This document shows, piece after piece, positions 1,305 to 15,367 of a stretch of 20,000 bases of DNA (its first letter is position 1; the number at the start of each line of letters is the position of its first letter). Origin of the DNA: an uncultured bacterium (lineage in GTDB: Bacteria > B130-G9); assembly GCA_965372715.1 (NCBI GenBank), contig CBDVDH010000013.1, positions 52,532 through 72,531 on the forward strand. The letters are read 5' to 3'. A program made the position numbers and the translations under genes. Below the pieces are notes generated by a model, which was given only the letters and a program-made list of their open reading frames with translations, had not been told where the DNA came from and ran no database searches.

Positions 1305-1811
1305 GTGCCTTTGAATATCAATGATGAACTTGAATCAGTCGCGAGGTCTCTCAACGAAAGCGGCATCGCATACGCGCTCTGCGGAGGATTGGCGGTGGCC
1401 GTTCATGGATACCCGCGAGCCACTCAGGATATCGACATGCTGATAAGAGAATCGGACCTGAATCAGGCAATAGCCCTTCTTGGCAAAAAGGGCTATTGTC
1501 TATCGGCGGGATTTGCTCCTTTCGATGTGGGAAAGGAATCGGAATCGCGGGTCTATCGCGTCTCTAAGGCGAGCGGCGAGGACCTCCTTACCATCGACTT
1601 GGTTCTTGTCTCTCCGATTATGGAGGACGTTTGGGAGGACCGGGATACCTTCCAGGTTGACGATTATGAGATAACGGTCGTTTCTCTATCGGGATTGAAG
1701 AAGATGAAACGGCTTGCGGGAAGACCGCAAGACCTTGTAGATTTGGAGCGACTGGAAGATGTGGAGCGAGATGATGAATCCGGACAACAAGAAGATCAGT
1801 CGCGAGATTAG
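1305..1811 (+). CDS. Pol-beta superfamily nucleotidyltransferase (stand-alone, AbiEii/DUF6036-like), ~168 aa
   Basis: YALCGGLAVAVHGYPRATQDIDML (GG...R.T.D.D motif), a third Asp in IDLV, and C-terminal MKRLAGRPQDLVDL. GGAGG at 1290-1294 precedes in-frame GTG 1305; the upstream ORF extension to 1059 looks non-coding. Confidence 0.85.
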   Translation: MPLNINDELESVARSLNESGIAYALCGGLAVAVHGYPRATQDIDMLIRESDLNQAIALLGKKGYCLSAGFAPFDVGKESESRVYRVSKASGEDLLTIDLVLVSPIMEDVWEDRDTFQVDDYEITVVSLSGLKKMKRLAGRPQDLVDLERLEDVERDDESGQQEDQSRD

Positions 1812-1974
1812 CCGGGATATGTCCCCGGAAGCGATTTCCCGGAGGCTCAGGATAGTCTCTGACCTTCGAATCCTCTGCCTCAAGCTCGGCCGAGCGAAGA
1901 AGCTCAAACTCGAAAGGACCAGGTCCCAGCAATCGGAGCCACCGGAGCAATCCGCAGACGCGGATGCAGGATGA
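1771..1974 (+). CDS. Small hypothetical protein (~67 aa), probable partner of the nucleotidyltransferase
   Basis: GGAG precedes ATG 1771; overlaps the 3' end of the upstream gene; amphipathic helical core DMSPEAISRRLRIVSDLRILCLKLGRA. Confidence 0.6.
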   Translation: MMNPDNKKISREISRDMSPEAISRRLRIVSDLRILCLKLGRAKKLKLERTRSQQSEPPEQSADADAG

Positions 1975-2191
1975 TTTCCATCGTCGTTATGCGTGCAAAG
2001 AGAAGGGGGAACGCGATGATCGAAAAGCCCGGTGAGCTGTTCGGCAAATCTCGATTTCCGCGATGTAAACACTCGCCCCGAAGTTAGTGATTGACAGTGG
2101 AGGCAGAAAGCCCGCTGCCGGTCAGCGCTAGTCCCTTTGCCCCTTTTTCCCTTTGTCCTTTTCTCCCCCCTCAACTGGGCGACTCGCCGTG

Positions 2192-2220
2192 TTGACGGAA
2201 AAGACCCACGCCACTATAGT
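2192..2220 (+). promoter_or_regulatory. Sigma70-type promoter for tRNA-His/hisS
   Basis: TTGACG (2192-2197), 17-nt spacer, TATAGT (2215-2220), 70 nt upstream of the tRNA. Confidence 0.7.
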
Positions 2221-2290
2221 TGTTCTGCAATTGATGCTTGCATACGGGCAGTTGGGTTTTTGCCTGACCAGCCCGCGCAATTGACAGCGT

Positions 2291-2365
2291 GCTGGCGTAG
2301 CTCAGTTCGGCTAGAGCACCTGACTGTGGATCAGGAGGTCTCGGGTTCAAGTCCCGACGCCAGTA
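2291..2365 (+). tRNA. tRNA-His (GUG), non-canonical: no encoded G-1, G1:U72, discriminator A73, CCA not encoded
   Basis: Full cloverleaf: acceptor GCTGGCG/CGCCAGT, D-stem GCTC/GAGC, anticodon stem CCTGA/TCAGG with loop CT-GTG-GA (anticodon 2326-2328), T-arm TCGGG-TTCAAGT-CCCGA. Confidence 0.97.
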
Positions 2366-2425
2366 CTTTTGTGTATCCTTTGCCGTGGTTTCATAGTTTG
2401 CAGGGGACTGGGATTAGAGATAGTC

Positions 2426-3889
2426 ATGGACGAGAAAAACAAGCGGCCGAAGGCGAGGCTCGCGCGCGGTTTCCGTGATGTCATTGGCGCGGACCTCGTT
2501 GCCCGGTACAACATGATCGAGACGATCCGCAAGGTTTACGAGCTTTACGGCTTCATGCCGCTTGAGACGCCAACGGTCGAGTTCGCGGACATGCTCGGCA
2601 AGTTCATTCAGGAGACGGGTCTTCCCGATGAGGGTGTGTTCTCGTTCAAGGCCGACCAGCCAGACTGGCTTGCACTAAGATACGACCTCACAGCGCCTCT
2701 TTCGCGCTTTGTTGCCCAGCACAAGGACCTGCCCAAGCCGTTCAGGCGCTATCAGATCGGGTCGGCGTTCCGCATCGAAAAGCCGGGGCCGGGGCGGTTC
2801 CGGGAGTTCATCCAGCTTGACATCGACACGGTGGGCAGCGCGAGCATGGCGGCCGACGCGGAGATATGCTGCGCCCTCTGCGACGCCTTTGACGCGCTCG
2901 GCCTCGATGGCATGTTCGTGGTCAGGGTCGGTAACCGACGGGTCCTGAACGGCGTGCTCCAGGCGGCGGGCGTCGATACGAAGGGCGGCGGCGGCATCAT
3001 CTCGACGCGGGTGATGCGCTGCATCGACAAGTTCGAGCGCCTGGGCCTGAGCGGTGTCGCGGAGCTTCTGAGGCAGGGCCGTATGGACGAATCGGGCGAC
3101 TTCACGGAGGGAGCGGGTCTGACCCAGGCGCAGGCGGAGGTTGTTACAGAGTATCTGAAGGGGTCGGGAGAGAGCAGGAAAGAGGTTTGCGAGGCGCTGA
3201 GAGCGATCGTCGGCGAATCCGAGGAAGGGAGGAGCGGCGTCGATGAGCTGGTAGAGATAGACGAGTTCCTGACGGCGGCCGGTTATGACGAGCGAAAGGT
3301 GATCTTCGATCCGACAATAGTCCGAGGGCTGACATACTACACGGGGCCAGTCTATGAGGCGTCGCTTATTGACGAGAATGGTCGCTTTTCAAGCAGTATC
3401 GCGGGGGGCGGGAGGTATGACAACCTCATCGAGCGTTTTACGGGCCAGAAGGTCCCCGCGACTGGCGCCTCAATTGGGCCTGATCGCTTGCTTGCGCTCC
3501 TGATTGGCCTTGGGAAGGTCTCGGAGTCGCTTTTGGCGCCGGTTTTTGTTACTCAGATGGACAGGGCCTGGGCGAAGGACTACCAAGCGATGACGTTCGA
3601 GCTCAGGCGCGCTGGTATCCCTGCGGAGCTCTTCCTGGGGAGGGCCAGCATTGGCAAGCAGCTGAAATACGCCGACCAGCGTAACATGCCACTTGCGGTG
3701 ATCGCTGGGGAGGACGAGTTTGCAAGCAAGACCGTCTCTATCAAGGACCTCCGCCGGGGCAAGCGGGTCGCGTCTGAAGTATCCGAGCGGTCGGAGTGGC
3801 TGAAGCACGAACAGACCCAGGAGACGGTTCCCCGCGGGCGGCTCGTCGAGCGCGTAATCGAGCTTCTGGCCAAGTATCCAGACGGCTAG
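2426..3889 (+). CDS. hisS: Histidine--tRNA ligase (class II), alphaproteobacterial-type, 487 aa
   Basis: RGFRD N-terminus, LRYDLTAPL, motif 2 FRIEKPGPGRFREFIQLD, RGLTYYTG, GGGRYDNL, anticodon-binding domain with KQLKYAD. Start set at ATG 2426. Confidence 0.97.
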   Translation: MDEKNKRPKARLARGFRDVIGADLVARYNMIETIRKVYELYGFMPLETPTVEFADMLGKFIQETGLPDEGVFSFKADQPDWLALRYDLTAPLSRFVAQHKDLPKPFRRYQIGSAFRIEKPGPGRFREFIQLDIDTVGSASMAADAEICCALCDAFDALGLDGMFVVRVGNRRVLNGVLQAAGVDTKGGGGIISTRVMRCIDKFERLGLSGVAELLRQGRMDESGDFTEGAGLTQAQAEVVTEYLKGSGESRKEVCEALRAIVGESEEGRSGVDELVEIDEFLTAAGYDERKVIFDPTIVRGLTYYTGPVYEASLIDENGRFSSSIAGGGRYDNLIERFTGQKVPATGASIGPDRLLALLIGLGKVSESLLAPVFVTQMDRAWAKDYQAMTFELRRAGIPAELFLGRASIGKQLKYADQRNMPLAVIAGEDEFASKTVSIKDLRRGKRVASEVSERSEWLKHEQTQETVPRGRLVERVIELLAKYPDG

Positions 3890-3915
3890 GAGGGACCCCC
3901 ATCCAGGACCGAATT

Positions 3916-5844
3916 GTGAGGAACGATAGTAAGGACAGCGGGCATCCGGATGAGCATCCCGTGCTCTACATTATGGGTCGGCCGGTGGAGAACCCGGTCG
4001 TCATCGACCACAGCCCCGATTGCCTGACGCTGGACAAGCTCGTTGCGGTCGCGCGGGGTGACGACGAGGGGCGGCTGGCGCGCGTCGTCGTGGCAGAGGA
4101 GAGCCTCCGGCGGACCGAGCGAAGCGCGGCTATGATTCAGAAAGCGGTCGTCAAGGCTCAGAGCGAGTTTGCGTCTGCCTCGCCCGAGAACCGGCACTTA
4201 TTCCTCATCTACGGCGTGAACACGGGCTTCGGCATCAATCGCGACAAGCCCGTGGAGTCCTATGCTGACTGCTGCAAGCTCTCCGAGAATATCCTCTTCA
4301 GCCATGCGACTGGTGTTGGGTCGCCACTTCCATCCGAGATCGTCCGAGCGACGATGCTGCTTCGCTTACGGACGTTCGCGCAGGGTCGGTCGGGCGTCAG
4401 ACCCGAGTTGCTCGTTCTTCTCGCCGAGATGCTCAACCGCAAGGTTCATCCGATGGTCCCCTCTCAGGGGAGCGTTGGCTCGTCCGGCGACCTGTGCTCG
4501 CTTTCGCACCTGTCGCTCGTTCTCATCGGCGAGGGAAACGCTTGGGTTGAGCCTGATTACCCCGCCCGTACCCCACACACATGGGACGACACGGTCGATG
4601 CGAGGCGCGGCCTGATGACAGGACGCAAGGCGCTGAGAGCGGTCGGGCTTGAGCCGCTGCGAGCGCCCGAGGTCCCGAACGGCTCTATTGCGGCAGGAAT
4701 GCGCTTGGCTCCCAAGGAAGGTCTGGCTCTGACCAACGGCGCGACCGTCGCGACTGCGATTGCCGCGCTTGCCACCTACGACGCAGGTCTGCTCTTGACC
4801 TCATCCAATCTCACCGGGGTGATGACGCTTCAGGCTATGGGCGGGACAACTCGCGCATTCGAGCCGTGCGTGCACGAGGCGCGGCGCCACAAGGGTCAGA
4901 AGGCCGTCGCGGAGGAGCTCATGTCATTCATCAACAACCCCGACCCATCCGGACTCGACAACCGTGCGGCCGTCATGTTTCAGACGCAGGACGACTATAG
5001 CCTGCGAGCGATGCCTCAGGTGCACGGCGCGGCGCTATCTGCGGTATGGCACGCGCGGGAGGTGATCGAGGGGGAGATGAATGCCGTAACTGACAACCCT
5101 CTAGTCTTCTGCGAGTCGGAGGACCAGGGCCAAAAGCCCTACGACGAACGGGTGGGGCGTCAGGTGAGCCTGTGGCCCCTGTATTCGGCGGCCAACTTCC
5201 ATGGGGAGCCGATAGGCCTCGTCGCGGACTACCTGAAACTCGCTGTTTCGGAACTCGCAAACATCTCCGAACGCCGCGTGCAGATGCTCTTGGACGTCAA
5301 CAGAAACCGGGGCCTGCCCGCCAATCTCTCCGGGGGCAGAAGCGGCCTCGATAGCGGCTTCATGATCTTTCAATACACGGCCGCGAGCCTCGTTTCTGAG
5401 AACAAGGTGCTGTGCCATCCGGCGAGCTGCGATTCGATACCCACGTCGTCCGACGCGGAGGACCACGTGGCGATGGCCACGACCGCGGCGCGGCATCTGC
5501 GAACGGTCGTATTGAATCTCGCGAACGTGCTGGCGATTGAGTTCATCTGCGCGACCCAGGCGCTAGCGTTTCGGACCTCTAAGCGTGGTCTGCTATTGAC
5601 CCTCACGGGTGCGTCTGGATGGGGCGCCAATGACCTCGCCAAGCCCACGTCTCAGGCCGCATTCCAGATGAGCGAACCCTGTAAGGCGGCGACCGAAATG
5701 GTTCTGTCAGTCTCGCGATTTGTGGTTGACGACGGGGATTTCGCAGAACTCTCGCCCCACGTCAGGATTGAATCGGTACGGAACCTCCTCGTGTCTGGCG
5801 GTCTGCTCCGCGCGGCCACAAAAAGGCTAGGCCGAAAGCCGTAG
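3916..5844 (+). CDS. hutH: MIO-dependent aromatic amino acid lyase, histidine ammonia-lyase type
   Basis: YGVNTGFG, NILFSHATGVG (HAL-type SH pair), GSVGSSGDL (MIO triad SSG), KEGLALTNG, QDDYSLRAMPQVHG, DNPL, NFHGEP, SERR, EDHVAM. Start uncertain (GTG 3916 or ATG 3973). Confidence 0.85.
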   Translation: MRNDSKDSGHPDEHPVLYIMGRPVENPVVIDHSPDCLTLDKLVAVARGDDEGRLARVVVAEESLRRTERSAAMIQKAVVKAQSEFASASPENRHLFLIYGVNTGFGINRDKPVESYADCCKLSENILFSHATGVGSPLPSEIVRATMLLRLRTFAQGRSGVRPELLVLLAEMLNRKVHPMVPSQGSVGSSGDLCSLSHLSLVLIGEGNAWVEPDYPARTPHTWDDTVDARRGLMTGRKALRAVGLEPLRAPEVPNGSIAAGMRLAPKEGLALTNGATVATAIAALATYDAGLLLTSSNLTGVMTLQAMGGTTRAFEPCVHEARRHKGQKAVAEELMSFINNPDPSGLDNRAAVMFQTQDDYSLRAMPQVHGAALSAVWHAREVIEGEMNAVTDNPLVFCESEDQGQKPYDERVGRQVSLWPLYSAANFHGEPIGLVADYLKLAVSELANISERRVQMLLDVNRNRGLPANLSGGRSGLDSGFMIFQYTAASLVSENKVLCHPASCDSIPTSSDAEDHVAMATTAARHLRTVVLNLANVLAIEFICATQALAFRTSKRGLLLTLTGASGWGANDLAKPTSQAAFQMSEPCKAATEMVLSVSRFVVDDGDFAELSPHVRIESVRNLLVSGGLLRAATKRLGRKP

Positions 5845-5865
5845 AACCGCCGGCCGAGAGGGACT

Positions 5866-8800
5866 CTACGGTGCAACGTGGAGTTCAGGCCAGGGGTCGC
5901 TCGTTTGCCCCAGGGTGTCGGCCGCGAGAATCTGGAGCTTGTATCGCCCAATGGGCACGTCGGTCGGAATCTGAAACAGAGTTGAATAGATGCCGTCGCC
6001 AGCAAACGCATCCCCGGACAGGCCCTCGTCATTGAGGAGCACCCCTAATCGCATGCTGTCAAACATGAGCTCTACCAGCTGGACCGCGTTGCCGTCGCCA
6101 AACGCCTGGGGCATCGCGACCGCGTGTAGGGCGTGCCCAGGGCCCAGCATCTGCGAGTGCATGAATCCGCCCGCGAGAATCACCGGCGCCTGAGCCGACG
6201 TGTCCCTGGTCTGGAACCAGTGGGTGTCATCTCTCAGGCAGTTGCCGACAAAATCGCAAGCCGCGATCTCGAGGTCGTAGCGCGTGTCCGGAGCGAAGCC
6301 TCCGGAGGGGGTATAGGCTACTGACAGAAGGCGCTCACCGTTGATACGAGCGATCTCAGCCGAGACGCTCGTCCCGTTCACCGAAAGCTCCACCGTGCTC
6401 ACGTCAACCCCAATTCCCGAATCGGCGAGCCTGAACGAAAGCGTGGTGTTGGGTGGGACTGTTGCACCCGTGTGGGGGCTCACATCAGAAAGGACGGGCG
6501 GGGCACTATCGCGAACGTAGTCTGAGAGGTAGTAGGTGCAGTTCTCGATTAGCTGGGTCCGCTGGCCTACGTCGTCTGATACGTATGGGACCGCGAAGGT
6601 CATGTAGATGATCTGTCCACCGTCCGCGTCGATGGTGTTGTCGTCGAAGTATATTAGCCCCGGCTGGGAATAGCGCGACCAGTTGTAGAGCACGTTGCCA
6701 TCTGCCGCGGGCACGCAGACATCCCTCGTTGCGAGGAATTCTCCATAGAACCCGACCGTGGACTCGAGCGCGTGCGGGGTCGTCGCGAGAGTCGCTTCGG
6801 GGCTTCTGAGAATGAGTATGTCGCCGTAGTCGGCCTTCCAGGAATCGATGTGCAGAACGTACTGCTTCAGATCAGAGAGGGGCGTTGGATATTGCTCGCA
6901 CGCGCTCCAGGCGAGGTCGCCCGCCTCTATCAGAAGCCGCCCGCCCGCGAGCACGTAATCGACGAGGCCCTCGTGGTACGCCGGCATCGGCTCGGATGCG
7001 TCGCCCAGGCAATAGACCACGATGTTGAACGGGGCGTCCGGTAGGTCCTCGCCGGGCGCGTGTGCGTTGACCACATATCCGGCGGCCTCGAGCGTCTCCA
7101 AGAAGACACCGGCGGAATCGCCGGAGTTGTCATCTATCAGCAGCACAGACCCCAGGGACGGGACGAGGGAGAACGTGAAATAGCCCTCCTCTGGAAGGGC
7201 AGCGTGATTAGGCGTCTTCGCAACGTCGGTGGCTTCGAGGCGATACCACACGCGGTCGCCCGGCGCAAGACCCGTCGCTGGAATCTCTCCCGAATACGCA
7301 GAGCCGCCGCCTGGTTCGAGGGTTACGGACGTCTCGTTCTGACCGCCAAAATGGTAGTAGAGCTTCACGCTGTCATCGTCCACGCCGAGGTTGTCCCAGA
7401 CGATGCAGCGAATTTCAAACGCTTCCCGGCTCGCCGGCTGGCTGCTGAGTGGGGTATGCTCGATCGTCGGCGCAAACGTGTCGGCTCGCACCCAGAAGCT
7501 GTGGACGCTGTCCGGGGCGTTTGGGGGGCTTGTGGAGTAGGCCCGGGCGATGTTCTCCGCGTAGATGTAGTAGAAGACCTGCGTGTTGTCCGGCTGGCCG
7601 GGGATGGTCGCAAGATACTGATCGGGCAGCAGGCCGCGCTCGAGCGAGACGGAAGTGTAATCGTCGGCCGATTGAGATGCGCTCTCCGTTCTGAGAAGAA
7701 GTGCCGATTCTGCGAGCGGCAGCGTCGAGTGAATGAAGCAGCTTAGGTGGATTTCCTCGCCCGATTCCTCAGTGTCCGGCAGCGGCTCGAAATCGATCTG
7801 CGGGGACATCTCACCAGGGTTGTAGAAGGACCTCAAGACCTCGTCCCACAGCGTGTCAGCCGTGAAGTCGAGAAAGCCCCGGTCCCCGTCGTAACGGTCG
7901 TCGTAGCTATGCTCTTCTGACTCAAAGTAGATCGAGAGCCCGTAGCAGTAGGGTAACCCGTCCCCGGCGCGATAGTGAAAAACGAGCTCATCGTGCTCGG
8001 ACGCCGCCTCTTGTGCCGCGTCTGAGACCGCGTCCGAGATGTCCTGATGGTCTAGCGCGAGCATGAAGTCCTTGAAATCAACGTAATACCAATAATCCTG
8101 CATTCTATAACTCGATATGTAGGCATCACGCACCTTGCTTTTGTTTTGCTCCATTGATGCGATGAGCAGCTGAGCAAGCTCGTCGAGTGTTGCGATAAAC
8201 CCATCGCCGAACTTTGCTATATCCACTGCGGACAGGACGACGAAAGAATCGTCGCTCGGATATGGGTCCCCGTCGGTGTAAGATCGGTAGAAGTAGTCAA
8301 CAATATGGACGGCGAGCTCCTTTGGACTGAGGTCTGCGCCGGGGCTGAGCTGGCTCAAGAACGCGTAGTCCCAGCCGTCCCAGGGTACCGATTCCTCCGA
8401 TGCGATCAGGACTTGGCAGAGGTCCTTGAGCTGATATGCGACCTCGACCATCCCCATCAGGCAGGCGTCCATGCCGATTATGTCCAGCGTCCTACCGGTG
8501 TTCTGCTGCAACCCGGCGAGGGCGGATTGGAGCTCAGAGATGTCCATCGCGTCGTAGCCGTCGTAGCAGATGTCTTTCGTCATCCGCCCGGCGGCGAGCT
8601 TTCTCCTCCAGCCATCCCCATGGTCCCAAAGAACGAGCGCGAGACGCTCCGCGGGGTAGCTATCGATTGCCCATTCAGAGAAGCGAAGCAGCGTGTCGGG
8701 CTCCGCGAGGTTGAGCTCGGTCAGCCCATCCCAATCAGCGTAAATGTCGCCGAGGGGAATCTGCTCTGACACGAGCGAGCTGTTCTGCGGGCCCAATGCG

Positions 8801-9090
8801 TCGTACTCGGCCTGATATGCCCGCGTATCGCTGTTGCTAATCTGGTCAACCAGAATCAGGACGTTCGCGTCAACCGACTCAATCGCCGCCTCGACCTCGT
8901 TCATGTCGTCGAGCGCACAGTCAGAGAGGCTGTTGTCGGCGCAAATGTACAGAATGAGCGTCCAGGCCTTTTCGTCGAACGACAATGGGTCTGCTCCAAA
9001 CACCATGCTCGCGGATGCGACTGTGAACAGCGCAAAAACAAGCGGCAAACATAACATTCTCAAGATTGTGCTCCCATCTATCCAATTCAT
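5866..9090 (-). CDS. Secreted clostripain-family (peptidase C11) multidomain protein with Ig-like repeats and a C-terminal choice-of-anchor X-like motif
   Basis: Hydrophobic signal peptide; WTLILYICADNSL; catalytic His in LVLWDHGDGW and Cys in GMDACLMG; ASEE; C-terminal LNDEGLSGDAFAGDGIYS. Start ATG 9090 or 9057. Confidence 0.88.
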   Translation of the reverse strand: MNWIDGSTILRMLCLPLVFALFTVASASMVFGADPLSFDEKAWTLILYICADNSLSDCALDDMNEVEAAIESVDANVLILVDQISNSDTRAYQAEYDALGPQNSSLVSEQIPLGDIYADWDGLTELNLAEPDTLLRFSEWAIDSYPAERLALVLWDHGDGWRRKLAAGRMTKDICYDGYDAMDISELQSALAGLQQNTGRTLDIIGMDACLMGMVEVAYQLKDLCQVLIASEESVPWDGWDYAFLSQLSPGADLSPKELAVHIVDYFYRSYTDGDPYPSDDSFVVLSAVDIAKFGDGFIATLDELAQLLIASMEQNKSKVRDAYISSYRMQDYWYYVDFKDFMLALDHQDISDAVSDAAQEAASEHDELVFHYRAGDGLPYCYGLSIYFESEEHSYDDRYDGDRGFLDFTADTLWDEVLRSFYNPGEMSPQIDFEPLPDTEESGEEIHLSCFIHSTLPLAESALLLRTESASQSADDYTSVSLERGLLPDQYLATIPGQPDNTQVFYYIYAENIARAYSTSPPNAPDSVHSFWVRADTFAPTIEHTPLSSQPASREAFEIRCIVWDNLGVDDDSVKLYYHFGGQNETSVTLEPGGGSAYSGEIPATGLAPGDRVWYRLEATDVAKTPNHAALPEEGYFTFSLVPSLGSVLLIDDNSGDSAGVFLETLEAAGYVVNAHAPGEDLPDAPFNIVVYCLGDASEPMPAYHEGLVDYVLAGGRLLIEAGDLAWSACEQYPTPLSDLKQYVLHIDSWKADYGDILILRSPEATLATTPHALESTVGFYGEFLATRDVCVPAADGNVLYNWSRYSQPGLIYFDDNTIDADGGQIIYMTFAVPYVSDDVGQRTQLIENCTYYLSDYVRDSAPPVLSDVSPHTGATVPPNTTLSFRLADSGIGVDVSTVELSVNGTSVSAEIARINGERLLSVAYTPSGGFAPDTRYDLEIAACDFVGNCLRDDTHWFQTRDTSAQAPVILAGGFMHSQMLGPGHALHAVAMPQAFGDGNAVQLVELMFDSMRLGVLLNDEGLSGDAFAGDGIYSTLFQIPTDVPIGRYKLQILAADTLGQTSDPWPELHVAP

Positions 9091-9218
9091 CTCGCCGGTT
9101 ACAACGCCTTGCCAGGACAATATAACATAACTCAACGCGCCCAGTTGTGAAAACCCGCTATTCCCATTGTCGCAGGAGCGCCGTCTCAAGAGGTCGGCGC
9201 ACAGTCGCGATTTGTGCT

Positions 9219-10461: not shown

Positions 10462-11481
10462 ATGGAAAGAGTCGTAGATTTTGCGGAAGATGAGAGCCTG
10501 AAAAGGCTTCTCGGTTCTTGCGATTCGGGTTCCAAACTTATTGAGGACGAGTTTGGTGTCGTCCTTATCTCTCGGGGCAGCAAGGTCAAGGTGCGCGGCG
10601 AGGACAGCAAGGTTCTTCTGGCCGAGGATTTCCTGCGGAAGATGGCTCCCCTCTTGGATAGGCACCCGCAGGCCGATGATTCGCTCGTTAGCGATGCGGT
10701 CTATGCGTATCTGAACGACAGTGATATCGATTTGCCTGGGCTGTTTCTTGACAAGATAAGGGTTCCCTCCCGGGCCGCGGACATATATCCCAAGACGCGG
10801 AACCAAAAGCGCTACGTTCGGCTGATGCGGACTTGCGACATAGTCTTCTCGATCGGCCCCGCCGGAACTGGGAAGACCTACCTCGCGATGGCGATTGCGG
10901 TGTCGGTCTTCTTCGCGAAGCAGGTCAAACGAATTGTTTTGACCAGGCCGGCGATTGAGGCGGGTGAGCGGCTTGGGTTCTTGCCCGGCGATTTCAAAGA
11001 GAAGATCATGCCTTATCTGAGGCCGCTCTACGACGCCCTTTATGACATGATTCCGATGAGCAAGGCGAGTTACTTGATCGAAAACGGCGCGATTGAGATT
11101 GCGCCTCTTGCGTATATGCGGGGTCGAACGCTTAATGACAGCGTCGCGATCTTGGATGAGGCGCAGAATACGACCCCGGAGCAGATGAAGATGTTCCTCA
11201 CACGCCTGGGCAAGGGTTCGAGAGCGGTGATTACTGGGGACATCACTCAGATAGACCTCCCTGCCGGGCAGGTTTCCGGGCTTGTGCAGGTCCAATCAGT
11301 ACTTTCCGCAATACGAGGGATAGAGTTTCAGTATTTCTCGTCCGCCGATGTTGTGCGGCACAACCTGGTTCAAAAGATAATCGATGCTTACGAGGTACAC
11401 AGCAGGCCGGCGGAGTCGTTGCCGAAGTCGTTGGCTCAAACCTCTTTCAGCGGGGAAGAGAGTGAGAGCAGGGACGGTTAG
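10462..11481 (+). CDS. phoH: PhoH-family ATPase (YbeZ-like)
   Basis: GPAGTGKT Walker A, LTRPAIEAGERLGFLPGD, PLAYMRGRTL, ILDEAQN, GDITQIDLP, DVVRH. Confidence 0.96.
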   Translation: MERVVDFAEDESLKRLLGSCDSGSKLIEDEFGVVLISRGSKVKVRGEDSKVLLAEDFLRKMAPLLDRHPQADDSLVSDAVYAYLNDSDIDLPGLFLDKIRVPSRAADIYPKTRNQKRYVRLMRTCDIVFSIGPAGTGKTYLAMAIAVSVFFAKQVKRIVLTRPAIEAGERLGFLPGDFKEKIMPYLRPLYDALYDMIPMSKASYLIENGAIEIAPLAYMRGRTLNDSVAILDEAQNTTPEQMKMFLTRLGKGSRAVITGDITQIDLPAGQVSGLVQVQSVLSAIRGIEFQYFSSADVVRHNLVQKIIDAYEVHSRPAESLPKSLAQTSFSGEESESRDG

Positions 11482-11518
11482 TTGAGCCTGGTGTGCAGGG
11501 CAATCGGCGGGAATTGAG

Positions 11519-13993
11519 ATGAGCAGAAGAAGCCGCTCCAGGCAGAAGCGTCAAGGCCTGGCCCGCGATTCGGAACCCCCTGAGCGGCGCTGGTCCTGGC
11601 ATTCATTTGTCGCTCGGCTCCCGGCGGTCATCGGCCGGAGCAAAGTTTATCGCACGATAATAGCCTGCGCGGCGATAGCGCTTCTTTCCGTTTTACTCGT
11701 TCCCAAGCGGCACACGATTGACGTGGAGCTTTATCGTGTTGGTGAAATAGCGAGACAGGATATGTGGGCTCCGAGCGAGATCACGATTGAGGACGAGCAG
11801 ACCACCGAGGCGAAAAGGAAGACCGCTGCGCAGAACGTAGCGCCTGTCTATGATTATGACGAGCGCGCCGTCTCTCAGACGATTGCGCTCATAGCATCTG
11901 CATTTTCAGGTCTTCGGGATGATCTCGGGAGGCGCAATGAGCTGCTGCGGTCCATCGAGCAAGCTTCTCCCGCGGAGGGTGAGGATGAGAGCGCCCGGTC
12001 GGGCACTGATAGCTCGGCAGAAGGTTCGCAGGAAGTGCAATCCGAGGCAACGGAACCAGCAGCACGGCCTGAGATCAAACCCACGATTGATGATTTGCAC
12101 GAGAAGTTCAAACAGACGCTTGGTGCGGACATGCCTCGCGAGGAGTTCGACCTGCTGGTCTCCTCAGGTTTCAGCGTTTCGGTTGAGCGATGTCTTACGA
12201 GGTCATTCGAGGAGGCCACCAGGGACGGCGTAGTCGGGGACAAGAATCTTTTGATAGGCAGTTCTGATAACGGGATAACGGTTAAGGAGGTTGGAAGCGT
12301 CATGACCAGATTGCTTGCTCCCAACGTGCTTTACAAGATTCCGGATGCCCAAGAGGCGCGTGCGACAGCGGCACGATTCGTGAGGTCTCGGTGCGCCGAC
12401 CTTAATATGCTTCACTCCGTGCTCGCCTCGATCGCTTCGCAGCTCATCAAGCCCACGCTAACCTTCAACAAGAGCGAGACGGAAAAGAGCAAGCAGGAAG
12501 CGATAGATGCGGTAGAGCCTGTTTATTTCAAGATCAAGAAGGGGCAGATGATCATCAGGGCTAGGGAGATGGTCACGCCTAAACATAACAAGATTATCAA
12601 TGTTGTCGCGAAGAACGTTCAGCCTCGCAAGCAGGTCTATTCGGCCGTTGGCACGCCGTTGTTCCTCGCAATTGTGATTCTGCTCATCTACTTGTCGGCT
12701 CGTAGGTTTGGATTTGAGGCCCGGCCGGGTTGGAAGAATGAGGCACTGTTCTGGTCGATCATCGTCCTGGCGGTGCTGTTCTCAAAGGTCTTTCTCTGGG
12801 GTGTGAGAAGCCTCGTTGGCACGATAGAGCAATTCCCGTTCAACCAGCTGGAGTCGTACTACTTCGCAGCCCCACTGGGGCTTGGCACGGTATTGACGAC
12901 GCTCCTTCTAGGTAAGAGATCGGGTCTGGCCGCGGCGGTTCTGGCTTCGGCGATTGTCCCACTGCTTTTTGGCAATTGGCCTGTGATCATCATGGCGACG
13001 CTTCTCTCCGGTATAGCCGTCGTGTTCGTCGCAGAGAAGTATAAGGGCGGGGCGCTGGTGTTCAAGATGGGCCTCTCGATTGGGATAGCTGCTGCCGTAA
13101 CGATACTCTCGATGCAGCTGCTTGATCCGAACGTAAAACTCGCGGACACGGGCTATTTCAATGCGCTGTGTGGTTTTGGTCAGGGGGTAGTAGTGATTGG
13201 GTTTACAAGCATCCTTTTGCCCATTCTGGAGCTCGTGTTTGGTGTCTGGACGAAGTCAAAGCTGCTCGATCTTGCGTCGAGCGACCGACCTCTCATCAAG
13301 CGGCTCATGATCGAGGCGGGTGGGACCCACAACCATAGCCTCAGGGTAGGCGAGCTCGCTCGAAACGCGTGCGAGGCGGTAGGCGCCAACGGTGTTATCG
13401 CGCTGGTTGGCTCGTATTATCACGACATAGGCAAGCTGAGGCGTCCCGGCTATTTCATTGAGAATACGCCAGTGGGAGGCGACAATCCTCACGAGAGTTT
13501 GACCCCGGCGATGAGCGTCCGTGTCCTCGTAGAACACGTAACCTACGGCCTCGAGCTGGCGCGGAAGAACAAGCTCCCGCCGGTCATCCATGACGCCATC
13601 GAACGGCATCACGGCACGTCGCTGATGAGGCCGTTTTATCATAAAGCCCAGGAAGCGGCGAAGCGGACCGGGGAGAACCTGGAGGAGTCCGAGTTCCGCT
13701 ATCCGGGCTCAAAGCCCAGGACCCGAGAGACGGGAATCATAATGCTTGCCGACTCGGTTGAGGCGGCCTCTAGGGTACTGACCAATCCGACCAGAGACAA
13801 GGTCTCGAAGATGGTCGATAGAATAGCGTCTTGGTATGTGGAGGACCATCAGCTTGATGAGTGCGACCTTACGCTCCGAGAGGTCCAGAAATGCAAGGAT
13901 ACATTTGTGCTGGTTTTGCAGGGGATGCTTCATTCCAGAATTGAGTATCCCGAGGACCAATTGGCCGGCCCAGATTCACAAGAGACAAGATAG
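11519..13993 (+). CDS. 7TM-HDIG membrane HD phosphohydrolase (PgpH-like cyclic di-AMP phosphodiesterase)
   Basis: N-terminal TM helix, large extracellular domain, multiple TM helices, then GTHNHS, YYHDIGK, YFIEN, HHGT, FRYPG, MLADSVEAA, RIEYP. Typical position between phoH and ybeY. Confidence 0.92.
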   Translation: MSRRSRSRQKRQGLARDSEPPERRWSWHSFVARLPAVIGRSKVYRTIIACAAIALLSVLLVPKRHTIDVELYRVGEIARQDMWAPSEITIEDEQTTEAKRKTAAQNVAPVYDYDERAVSQTIALIASAFSGLRDDLGRRNELLRSIEQASPAEGEDESARSGTDSSAEGSQEVQSEATEPAARPEIKPTIDDLHEKFKQTLGADMPREEFDLLVSSGFSVSVERCLTRSFEEATRDGVVGDKNLLIGSSDNGITVKEVGSVMTRLLAPNVLYKIPDAQEARATAARFVRSRCADLNMLHSVLASIASQLIKPTLTFNKSETEKSKQEAIDAVEPVYFKIKKGQMIIRAREMVTPKHNKIINVVAKNVQPRKQVYSAVGTPLFLAIVILLIYLSARRFGFEARPGWKNEALFWSIIVLAVLFSKVFLWGVRSLVGTIEQFPFNQLESYYFAAPLGLGTVLTTLLLGKRSGLAAAVLASAIVPLLFGNWPVIIMATLLSGIAVVFVAEKYKGGALVFKMGLSIGIAAAVTILSMQLLDPNVKLADTGYFNALCGFGQGVVVIGFTSILLPILELVFGVWTKSKLLDLASSDRPLIKRLMIEAGGTHNHSLRVGELARNACEAVGANGVIALVGSYYHDIGKLRRPGYFIENTPVGGDNPHESLTPAMSVRVLVEHVTYGLELARKNKLPPVIHDAIERHHGTSLMRPFYHKAQEAAKRTGENLEESEFRYPGSKPRTRETGIIMLADSVEAASRVLTNPTRDKVSKMVDRIASWYVEDHQLDECDLTLREVQKCKDTFVLVLQGMLHSRIEYPEDQLAGPDSQETR

Positions 13994-14040
13994 CGTTTGG
14001 GGGCCGGATCGCATGGGTATTAGAGCTGAGCGGAGGTATC

Positions 14041-14496
14041 ATGGCCAGAATTGAAATCATCTCAGATGCAGGTTGGGACAGAGTGGACGAGAGCCGGGCG
14101 CGGGGCGTTGTGTCTCAAGCCCTAAGGATGATCGGCAGAAGCGGCGCCGCGGTCAACGTGCTGTTCAGCGGCGATGAGAGGATACGGAGGCTGAACAAGG
14201 AGTTCAGAGATGTTGACGCCCCGACCGATGTGATGGCGTTCCCGTCCGGGGATGACGGCGGCTTCCTGGGAGACATCATTATCTCCGTTGAGACGGCGAA
14301 GATGCACGCCGACGAGCTTGGCCACAGCCTCGAGCGTGAGATTAGAATCCTGCTTGTCCACGGCATTCTGCACCTCATCGGATACACCGATTATGACGAC
14401 TCAGCCAAACAGGGCATGTTTCAAAAGACGGACGAAATGTTAGAGCAACTTAATGTTTCTCACAATCCAGGGAAGGTGACAAGAAGTGGAGGATGA
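14041..14496 (+). CDS. ybeY: rRNA maturation endoribonuclease YbeY
   Basis: LNKEFRDVDAPTDVMAFP, LGDIIIS, HGILHLIGY; Shine-Dalgarno GGAGG. Confidence 0.95.
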   Translation: MARIEIISDAGWDRVDESRARGVVSQALRMIGRSGAAVNVLFSGDERIRRLNKEFRDVDAPTDVMAFPSGDDGGFLGDIIISVETAKMHADELGHSLEREIRILLVHGILHLIGYTDYDDSAKQGMFQKTDEMLEQLNVSHNPGKVTRSGG

Positions 14497-15367
14497 CCAA
14501 AGCGCGGGCAATTTAGGGCTGCTCGCCAAGCTAAGAAACTTTGTCAAGCGTCTTAAGACGTCGGGGAGGGCCGAACCCGTCCATGACAGGATAATCTCGC
14601 TAATCGACCGCTCGATTGAGGACCCGTCCGAGATCGATAGCAGCGTGCTAAGGATGATTGGCAGCGTGCTCGAGTTCAGCGACAAGATCGTTCGCGAGGT
14701 GATGGTCCCGCGTGTCGATATGATCTGCGTGGAGCTTTCGGACGGTGTTCAAGAGCTCAAGCGCGTCATGGCGGAGGAGGGCTATTCGAGGGTCCCGATC
14801 TTCGACGACAACATCGACAACATCGTCGGCATCGCCCACGTCAGGGACCTCATCCGACAGGAGAACATCCACGGCAGCGGGGCATTCGAGATGTCGCAGA
14901 TAATGATGAAGCCGTTCTTCGTGCCCGAGACCAAGAAGGCCAAGGACCTCCTGGCTACGTTCCGCACCGACAAGAACCTCATGGCCATAGCGGTCGATGA
15001 ATATGGCGGCACGGCCGGGCTTATCACGATTGAGGACCTGCTCGAGGAGATAGTCGGCGAAATACGAGGCGAGTTCGAGCCTGAGCTGGAGGAGCCGCTG
15101 AAGGTGCTCGACGACGACACCATCATCGCCGACGGCAATACCGACCTCGACCTGCTTCTGGAGCATGTGCCGCTCGCAGTTGAGAATCACGATTTCGACA
15201 CGCTCGCCGGGTTCATACTCGACCAGACTGGCTCGGTTCCGGCCGAGAACGAGAGCTTTGTGTTCGGCGGCTTCCGCTTCACCGTGCTCCAGGCCGACGA
15301 GCGCCGCATCCTGAAGGTCAAGATCGAACGCCTCAAGGCCCAATCCGAGCAGGATGACGATATGTAG
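14486..15367 (+). CDS. corC: CBS-pair plus CorC/HlyC domain protein (YbeX/CorC-like)
   Basis: VREVMVPR, GYSRVPIF, FFVPETK, VDEYGGTAGLITIEDLLEEIVGEI, DTLAGF; directly follows ybeY. Confidence 0.92.
   Translation: MEDDQSAGNLGLLAKLRNFVKRLKTSGRAEPVHDRIISLIDRSIEDPSEIDSSVLRMIGSVLEFSDKIVREVMVPRVDMICVELSDGVQELKRVMAEEGYSRVPIFDDNIDNIVGIAHVRDLIRQENIHGSGAFEMSQIMMKPFFVPETKKAKDLLATFRTDKNLMAIAVDEYGGTAGLITIEDLLEEIVGEIRGEFEPELEEPLKVLDDDTIIADGNTDLDLLLEHVPLAVENHDFDTLAGFILDQTGSVPAENESFVFGGFRFTVLQADERRILKVKIERLKAQSEQDDDM

Follow-up and report, generated by a model that had tools for sequence, protein, structure and literature searches.

An additional guanosine at position -1 (G-1) is taught to be an almost universal identity element of tRNA-His. 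In the canonical system, as in Escherichia coli and Thermus thermophilus (4RDX), an encoded G-1:C73 pair is kept by an aberrant RNase P cleavage, and histidyl-tRNA synthetase (HisRS) carries a Gln-containing motif-2 loop. The accessible text of PMC3245924 (2011) and PMC9976931 (2023) assigns the exception among bacteria to "a small alpha-proteobacterial clade", and PMC3064791, together with the accessible parts of PMC3937112, PMC5389517 and PMC13433404, also restricts it to Alphaproteobacteria. The holders are Rhizobiales, Rhodobacterales, Caulobacterales, Parvularculales/Hyphomonadaceae and most of SAR11 (PMC3064791 and the accessible part of PMC3937112). Yuan et al. (2011, PMC3064791) describe position 1 as the first nucleotide of the tRNA-His in this group, and the HisRS of Caulobacter crescentus charges a transcript without G-1; addition of G-1 lowers the efficiency 5-fold, and changes of the anticodon or of U72 cost the enzyme about 100-fold or more (PMC3064791). 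Here we describe a stretch of 20,000 nucleotides (nt) from an uncultured bacterium (the window; positions 52,532 to 72,531 of contig CBDVDH010000013.1, assembly GCA_965372715.1), in which a tRNA-His gene lacking G-1 stands upstream of hisS, the gene for a HisRS of the G-1-independent type, and a gene for a histidine-ammonia-lyase-like enzyme follows hisS directly. The pair is a known type of system in an unexpected phylum.

The single tRNA of the window is tRNA-His(gtg), called by ARAGORN at 2291-2366. The gene itself (2291..2365, + strand) matches Rfam RF00005 with 69.5 bits over model positions 1-71 of 71, and it folds into an ordinary 7/5 cloverleaf with a GUG anticodon and G37. Position -1 (2290, + strand) is T and not G, the first pair of the acceptor stem is G1:U72 (G2291 with T2364), and the discriminator is A73 (A2365); these three features had been listed in the initial annotation and can be read directly from the sequence. 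CTTTTG follows A2365, indicating that CCA is not encoded. The D-loop is enlarged to 10 nt (AGTTCGGCTA) and differs from the 9-nt form with U20a of Alphaproteobacteria, and D-loops of the other G-1-less tRNA-His genes from outside that group range from 8 to 10 nt. When we counted T at position -1, it was present in 21 of the 25 A73-type tRNA-His genes examined (with the host's family counted once) and, as a control, in 21 of the 26 A73 tRNAs of the host genome; among host tRNAs of all kinds, a rougher count based on ARAGORN borders gave 20 of 49. Since the T is equally common in the other A73 tRNAs of the host, we dropped the idea that it is a special feature, and its conservation gives no sign of a retained U-1.

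The hisS gene (2426..3889, + strand) starts with ATG after a 60-nt spacer (2366..2425, + strand) and encodes a protein of 487 amino acids, which scores 353.6 bits against TIGR00442 (cut-off 286.75) and also matches PF13393 and PF03129. The distance of 60 nt and the three peptide segments that had been pointed out earlier were all confirmed. KARLARGF occupies residues 9-16, the motif-2 loop EKPGPGR (2777..2797, + strand; residues 118-124) has Gly-Pro in place of the canonical Gln-Lys, and GRMDESGDFTEGAGL (3077..3121, + strand; residues 218-232) is a clade-specific insert. Every row displayed for the G-1-independent clade has this insert of about 12 residues, which is gapped or unalignable in the canonical rows; its pattern GRxDESGDFTxGAGL is common to the alphaproteobacterial rows and missing from the canonical ones. 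In the long clade, each of the 29 rows displayed shows a loop of the form (E/D)KP(G/D/E)(P/L)(G/A)R without Gln together with a DESGDFT-type insert, and in 9 of the 10 other displayed rows, with G034 as the exception, Gln follows the Pro of the loop. Gln is missing from all seven displayed rows of the alphaproteobacterial clade, five of which have a loop identical to that of the window, and the remaining two differ from the EKPGPGR context at the R/Y after the loop or at one Gly. The enzymes of the G-1-independent clade are 476-509 amino acids long, compared with 430-458 for canonical enzymes. The closest solved structures are the bacterial HisRS structures 3net and 6nhi, followed by human cytoplasmic and trypanosome HisRS, and none of them belongs to the G-1-independent clade; structures of the E. 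coli/Thermus type align with the window enzyme in parts only.

Contig C13, which carries the window, belongs to a host genome of 3.56 Mb (112 contigs, 95.9% complete, 1.5% estimated contamination), and this genome holds a single histidine-charging system. The tRNA-His(GUG) of the window is the only one among 49 tRNAs, so that a canonical tRNA-His is lacking as well, tblastn detected no second hisS, and a search of the 95.9% complete genome for Thg1 (PF04446) gave no match. The RNase P RNA of the host is of type A (294 bits).

When we compared the locus with the alphaproteobacterial pair (C. crescentus; PMC3064791 and the accessible part of PMC3937112), both had no encoded G-1, G1:U72, A73 and a GUG anticodon with G37, both had a HisRS of about 490 amino acids with a (E/D)KPGPGR loop and a DESGDFT insert that falls in the same subclade (support 100), and neither was accompanied by Thg1 or a second system. 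The locus differs in that its host belongs to the Coatesbacteria phylum and its enzyme stands outside the alphaproteobacterial clade at about 50% identity, in that the tRNA gene lies 60 nt upstream of hisS with a lyase-like gene after it (an arrangement seen in 0 of the 77 loci L006-L082), and in that its tRNA has no encoded CCA and a D-loop of 10 instead of 9 nt. All sequence-level features of a G-1-independent pair are therefore present except the exact D-loop length, and the organism is outside the described group. With the canonical system the locus shares the two class IIa HisRS families named above, the GUG anticodon and the GGGRYD motif 3, but it lacks G-1:C73, has Gly-Pro for Gln-Lys and an extra insert, and matches the canonical structures partially. 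HisRS enzymes of the protists Acanthamoeba castellanii and Trypanosoma brucei likewise charge tRNA without G-1, according to the accessible parts of PMC3561963 and PMC4338351, although these belong to another domain of life in which Thg1 was lost independently; the trees presented here consist of non-eukaryotic sequences. The G-1-less tRNA-His genes in the accessible text of PMC5389517 (2017) also have A73 (or U73, as in genome G272 below), but with an 8/4 acceptor/T-stem instead of the 7/5 cloverleaf. In a full-text literature search, whose coverage excluded most subscription journals and supplements, we found no description of the pair outside Alphaproteobacteria, phages and protists.

The host phylum in GTDB consists of seven genomes in one family, and the next relatives share only the domain with it (one genome per species was searched). 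A family member with 77% identity is labelled Candidatus Coatesbacteria, which NCBI ranks as a candidate phylum, Candidatus Coatesiibacteriota. Based on the seven-genome phylum and this label, the host is not an alphaproteobacterium (not of Rhizobiales, Rhodobacterales, Caulobacterales, Hyphomonadaceae or SAR11) but a Coatesbacteria-phylum bacterium, in agreement with the impression that the initial annotation had gained from the neighbouring genes. The window type of HisRS is present in all seven genomes (73-100% identity). In the six genomes that are readable at this position, including that of the window, hisS is immediately preceded by a tRNA-His with T at -1, G1:U72, A73 and no CCA, and the acceptor stem and anticodon arm of this tRNA are identical; in the seventh genome the tRNA region is cut by a contig end. 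The lyase-like gene stands 3' of hisS in all family genomes, and the genes upstream of tRNA-His vary (NTP_transf_5, FGE-sulfatase, PolA, protein kinase). Since all six readable genomes share the tRNA-hisS arrangement, it is not a binning artefact and is older than the radiation of the family.

Outside the family, the closest HisRS sequences show 51-56% identity to the window enzyme and come, where named, from Blastocatellia/Pyrinomonadaceae, Marinimicrobia, Zixibacteria and Planctomycetota, and named Rhodobacterales and Hyphomicrobiales enzymes show 48-53%. In the Protein Atlas, the homologue P0006 falls in HisRS clusters only, with labels that are mostly Pseudomonadota or Planctomycetota. We calculated two maximum-likelihood HisRS trees of 62 and 66 rows (LG+C20, quick search without bootstraps) with support from the Shimodaira-Hasegawa-like approximate likelihood-ratio test (SH-aLRT); P0006, P0009 and P0032 (identical to G004, G003 and G022) as well as P0102, P0086, L028, L079 and L006 were left out of the second tree, and G366 was replaced by the identical P0241. 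In both trees the long HisRS enzymes (476-509 amino acids) form one clade with support of 96-97, apart from the canonical enzymes. By source names, subclade A (support 100) comprises Hydrogenedentes, Omnitrophica, Verrucomicrobiota and Abditibacteriaceae, subclade B (87) comprises Acidobacteria, TA06, Bacteroidota and Ignavibacteriae, and subclade C (100) comprises Planctomycetota, Zixibacteria, Marinimicrobia, Blastocatellia, Coatesbacteria and one alphaproteobacterial clade. The subclade A enzyme of G366 matches a Candidatus Hydrogenedentes-labelled protein with 100% identity. The Coatesbacteria enzymes form a clade of their own (100), and the alphaproteobacterial clade (98-99) excludes them.

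These trees bear out the earlier assignment of the HisRS to the alphaproteobacterial G-1-independent type, since the enzyme falls in subclade C and not with canonical enzymes; comparison with the identity of the host shows that the enzyme groups with the alphaproteobacterial type while its host lies outside Alphaproteobacteria and the enzyme itself outside their clade. The approximately unbiased (AU) test rejected a tree in which the 43 non-alphaproteobacterial enzymes are grouped apart from the alphaproteobacterial ones (delta lnL 90.3, p 0.0004), and the alphaproteobacterial HisRS is therefore a nested branch of a much wider G-1-independent family. This nesting fits an older idea, cited in the accessible part of PMC3937112, that Alphaproteobacteria acquired their HisRS by lateral transfer. 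We also observed that two members of GTDB family f17, G022 (L089/L113) and G196 (L146/L154), have nearly the same tRNA-His acceptor stem and HisRS enzymes of subclades C and B, respectively, which suggests that one G-1-independent HisRS replaced another in this family without a change of the tRNA.

We then searched 401 genomes with the window HisRS, seven from the phylum and 394 from about 270 other families. Matches at E <= 1e-80 were obtained in 18 of the 394 genomes, and all 18 were typed for tRNA-His, which was located by BLAST or by a covariance model for which eight G-1-less tRNA-His genes were used, with the ends read after ARAGORN. Twelve genomes (G022, G025, G032, G039, G047, G055, G110, G196, G292, G306, G356 and G366) have no G at -1, A73 and a loop without Gln, and their HisRS shows 39-56% identity to that of the window over the full length; eleven of them have G1:U72, and G032 has C1:G72. 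Five others (G337, G164, G318, G093 and G079) are canonical, with G-1:C73 and the Gln loop, and their HisRS shows 38-42% identity in a match that stops near residue 450-470. The remaining genome, G272, has C at -1, G1:C72 and U73. The motif of the loop follows the type of tRNA in genomes that are not related to one another, and the tRNA features recur in all six readable family genomes; the features of the window are therefore no coincidence. In a Planctomycetota-labelled genome reached through locus L005 (HisRS 52% identity) we found T at -1, G1:U72 and A73, and the tRNA-His of L223 has G1:C72 with A73. As a side observation, G032 (L132), with its C1:G72, and G356, with G1:U72, have sister HisRS enzymes. 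BLAST with the window tRNA missed tRNA-His in G025, G032, G041 and G044, of which the covariance model recovered G025, G032 and G041; in G012 and G043 no tRNA-His was found, BLAST with the window tRNA being negative and the top covariance-model matches being tRNA-Pro. The survey of the 394 genomes, the source names and the metagenome loci described below strongly support the suggestion made in the initial annotation that this identity system is more widely distributed than described, and the G-1-independent pair occurs well outside Alphaproteobacteria, across many phyla by source labels.

The linkage of the two genes is also found elsewhere. Besides the Coatesbacteria family, G039 (65 nt), G055 (79 nt), G306 (85 nt) and G366 (174 nt) have tRNA-His a short distance upstream of hisS in the same orientation, and each of the three HisRS subclades includes linked pairs. 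In G292 tRNA-His is 74 nt downstream of hisS and convergent with it, in G272 it is 1.2 kb away, and the two genes are unlinked in G022, G025, G032, G047, G110, G196, G356, G041 and all five canonical genomes. Among 80 loci from named genomes, a tRNA of any kind was within 3 kb of hisS only in two loci of the Coatesbacteria family and in 0 of the 78 others. Another 80 loci, from metagenomes, were fetched with the clade alignment. In 62 of these the loop reads RNEKPG..., as in Rhodobacterales and Hyphomicrobiales, and tRNA-His is near hisS in none of the 62; an xDKP loop resembling that of subclades A and B is found in 13, and five were left unclassed by the pattern used. In seven of the 13 xDKP loci a G-1-less tRNA-His in the same orientation precedes hisS by 36-129 nt, in one more it is 2.2 kb away, and one locus has no upstream sequence. 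A lyase-like gene then follows hisS in G022, G039 and G055 and is near hisS in G041 and G272; it also comes after hisS in seven of the 13 xDKP loci, four of which hold tRNA, hisS and lyase together. No lyase-like gene was found in the 77 named-genome loci L006-L082 or in nine canonical loci. These results indicate that the tRNA-His/hisS/lyase-like module recurs in non-alphaproteobacterial lineages and is in none of the alphaproteobacterial loci examined. In L145, the Hydrogenedentes-labelled locus of G366, the gene after tRNA-His and hisS is not a lyase-like but a HisG-like gene (ATP phosphoribosyltransferase).

In the window, a sigma-70-like promoter (TTGACG-17 nt-TATAGT; 2192..2220, + strand) is predicted about 70 nt upstream of tRNA-His. 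It has 10 of 12 consensus matches and is the only promoter-like site of the + strand in 1800-4100, and reading by eye placed a TTGACGGA ... TAT(A/G)(G/T)T pair at the same distance upstream in the five other readable family genomes. Since this promoter-like site is conserved and no terminator-like site lies between tRNA-His and hisS, the two genes are likely to be co-transcribed from one promoter. The tight linkage under one promoter that had been proposed for the pair thus stands as far as the linkage is concerned, and the shared promoter is plausible. We also considered a leader attenuator, a weak hairpin with a T-run at 2235-2250 (+ strand) between the promoter and the tRNA gene; one such site was found against a mean of 1.8 in shuffled sequences, and the hairpin sequence is not conserved in G004, G002 and G003, and the attenuator was rejected. 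Mixed operons of this kind are known from the thrU-tyrU-glyT-thrT-tufB operon of E. coli, in which one promoter serves tRNA genes and, behind them, the gene of a translation factor. The window differs from it in that the tRNA is the cognate substrate of the adjacent enzyme.

Based on these observations, we consider it highly probable that the pair is the native and sole histidine-charging system of a Coatesbacteria-phylum bacterium, apparently organized as one unit of promoter, G-1-less tRNA-His, hisS and lyase-like gene. In the mechanism that we propose, ordinary type-A RNase P would cut the pre-tRNA at the normal +1 site, so that mature tRNA-His would begin at G1, and CCA, which is not encoded, would be added after transcription. 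The HisRS appears to have lost the motif-2 Gln/Lys that serves G-1:C73 and to have gained the insert of about 12 residues, and its recognition of the tRNA would rest on the GUG anticodon, U72 and A73, like that of the C. crescentus enzyme. By the same analogy with the Caulobacter work (PMC3064791), the pair would be expected to be orthogonal to G-1-dependent systems and portable.

Here, we need to consider several points that weigh against this explanation. The 10-nt D-loop departs from the 9-nt D-loop with U20a that is reported to be invariant in the alphaproteobacterial group (PMC3064791). U72 is not universal in the wider family, as C1:G72 in G032 and G1:C72 in L223, both with A73, demonstrate, and the Caulobacter identity set may therefore not carry over exactly. 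G272 keeps the loop Gln yet has no G-1:C73, so that the covariation of loop and tRNA is imperfect, and this genome may represent an intermediate or a third type. The grouping examined by the AU test was chosen after the tree was known, and the trees themselves come from quick searches without bootstraps. In addition, typing was confined to the 18 genomes with a close HisRS match and left aside the other 376, which makes 13 of 394 a lower bound.

The close linkage had led the initial annotation to suggest a joint transfer of the pair, and as a recent horizontal transfer of the tRNA-hisS cassette from an alphaproteobacterium of the known clade this now appears very unlikely. It would account for the best named matches after the family, which are mostly from Rhodobacterales and Hyphomicrobiales, for the compactness of a pair with its own promoter-like site, and for the guanine-plus-cytosine content of 0.59-0.64 in 2001-8000 compared with the genome mean of 0.567. 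However, the identity to the alphaproteobacterial enzymes is only about 50%, and Blastocatellia, Zixibacteria, Planctomycetota and Marinimicrobia are equal or closer. The alphaproteobacterial clade, itself nested, excludes the Coatesbacteria clade, and the enzyme is shared by the whole phylum as sampled (seven of seven genomes). In addition, tRNA-His is beside hisS in none of the loci L006-L082 and in none of the 62 alphaproteobacterial-like metagenome loci, and the tRNA-His genes of Aliishimia, Tateyamaria and the alphaproteobacterial-clade genomes G110 and G292 all encode CCA, unlike that of the window. The idea that the contig itself comes from another organism, for example an alphaproteobacterium, through binning or assembly has next to no probability: although the assembly is split into 112 contigs with 1.5% estimated contamination, the tRNA-hisS-lyase arrangement recurs in other species-level genomes of the family (HisRS 73-97% identity), the genome contains no other hisS or tRNA-His, and the contig is at least 72.5 kb long. 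It is likewise improbable that the mature tRNA carries an extra 5' nucleotide, either a G-1 added post-transcriptionally or the encoded U-1 kept as U-1:A73 in an 8-bp stem. The T at -1 can pair with A73, it is present in most A73-type tRNA-His genes (the 21 of 25 given above), and ARAGORN included it in the tRNA in several relatives; on the other hand, a T at this position is generic in the A73 tRNAs of the host, and C, A and G occur at -1 among G055, L256, G356 and Aliishimia. An added G-1 is disfavored by the missing Thg1 family match in the genome and by a HisRS without the loop Gln tied to G-1:C73, and the alphaproteobacterial tRNA starts at position 1 and is charged 5-fold less efficiently when G-1 is added (PMC3064791).

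An ancient transfer, by which a linked tRNA-His/hisS(/lyase) block moved between phyla and was gained by Coatesbacteria before their radiation, replacing a canonical G-1 system, is a possibility that we take seriously but hold to be somewhat doubtful. Linkage in all three subclades and in unrelated families (f1, G039, G055, G306, G366 and seven metagenome loci) would be expected under such a history, although selection for co-expression could also keep the genes together or bring them together again. The upstream neighbours vary within the family while tRNA, hisS and lyase stay joined, family f17 has HisRS of two subclades (G022 in C, G196 in B), and the HisRS tree departs from the phyla, with Planctomycetota-labelled rows in two places. 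Against it, neither mobility genes nor repeats nor tRNA-targeted integration scars were seen beside the unit, where no search was aimed at them, and the phylum has one family, so that a gain is indistinguishable from ancestry. In its widest form, the linked G-1-less tRNA-His-hisS(-lyase) would be an ancestral and horizontally mobile second histidine identity system of bacteria, spread over a dozen or more phyla, which Alphaproteobacteria acquired late and once and whose genes they later separated; we offer this as a tentative proposal that is, taken as a whole, rather unlikely. If it were true, a whole tRNA identity rule would be a transferable trait, and the alphaproteobacterial synapomorphy would be an import.

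For the native and sole Coatesbacteria system that we favor, the significance is that the same type of enzyme and tRNA serves as the only system of a candidate phylum, with Alphaproteobacteria nested inside the HisRS family. This alters the picture of where the identity switch took place and how many times, and it weakens the trait as a phylogenetic marker for Alphaproteobacteria. The many natural and compact tRNA-synthetase cassettes are candidate orthogonal pairs, and the recurring lyase-like neighbour suggests that the charging of tRNA with histidine and the turnover of this amino acid are coupled in an unstudied way.

The lyase-like gene of the window (3916..5844, + strand) directly follows hisS, and its start is uncertain among GTG 3916, GTG 3961 and ATG 3973. 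The product matches the aromatic amino acid lyase family PF00221 with an E value of 3.5e-147 and falls below the cut-offs for hutH, which are still its best-matching families (NF006871, 477 vs 524; TIGR01225, 454.9 vs 539.15). It has Ser-Ser-Gly, and not Ala-Ser-Gly, at the position (from 4477) of the 4-methylideneimidazole-5-one (MIO) group. Judged by its sequence, the gene would encode a MIO enzyme resembling the histidine ammonia-lyase family that differs from HutH in both score and MIO motif.

Farther downstream, 5866-9189 (- strand) encodes a protein of 1107 amino acids with an N-terminal clostripain (Peptidase_C11) domain; for the other approximately 650 residues, Pfam gave no match at E <= 1e-5. 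The order of phoH, a PgpH-like 7TM-HD gene and ybeY that had been noted earlier is supported by clear Pfam matches, and these genes stand in a row with a CBS/CorC gene at 10462-15367 (+ strand). Elsewhere in the same genome, a tRNA-Sec (UCA) gene is found at C18:164-261, and from this gene the organism probably uses selenocysteine. ARAGORN also called a 75-nt tRNA with a UUA anticodon at C37:8498-8572 (- strand), which would read the UAA stop codon. It has an A1/A72 mismatch, an encoded CCA and an Rfam tRNA score of 51.2 bits, and the RNase P RNA gene (C37:9240-9618) is about 670 nt away from it. In its acceptor stem this tRNA is similar to the tRNA-Pro genes of the host, and it could represent a suppressor tRNA or one that has decayed.

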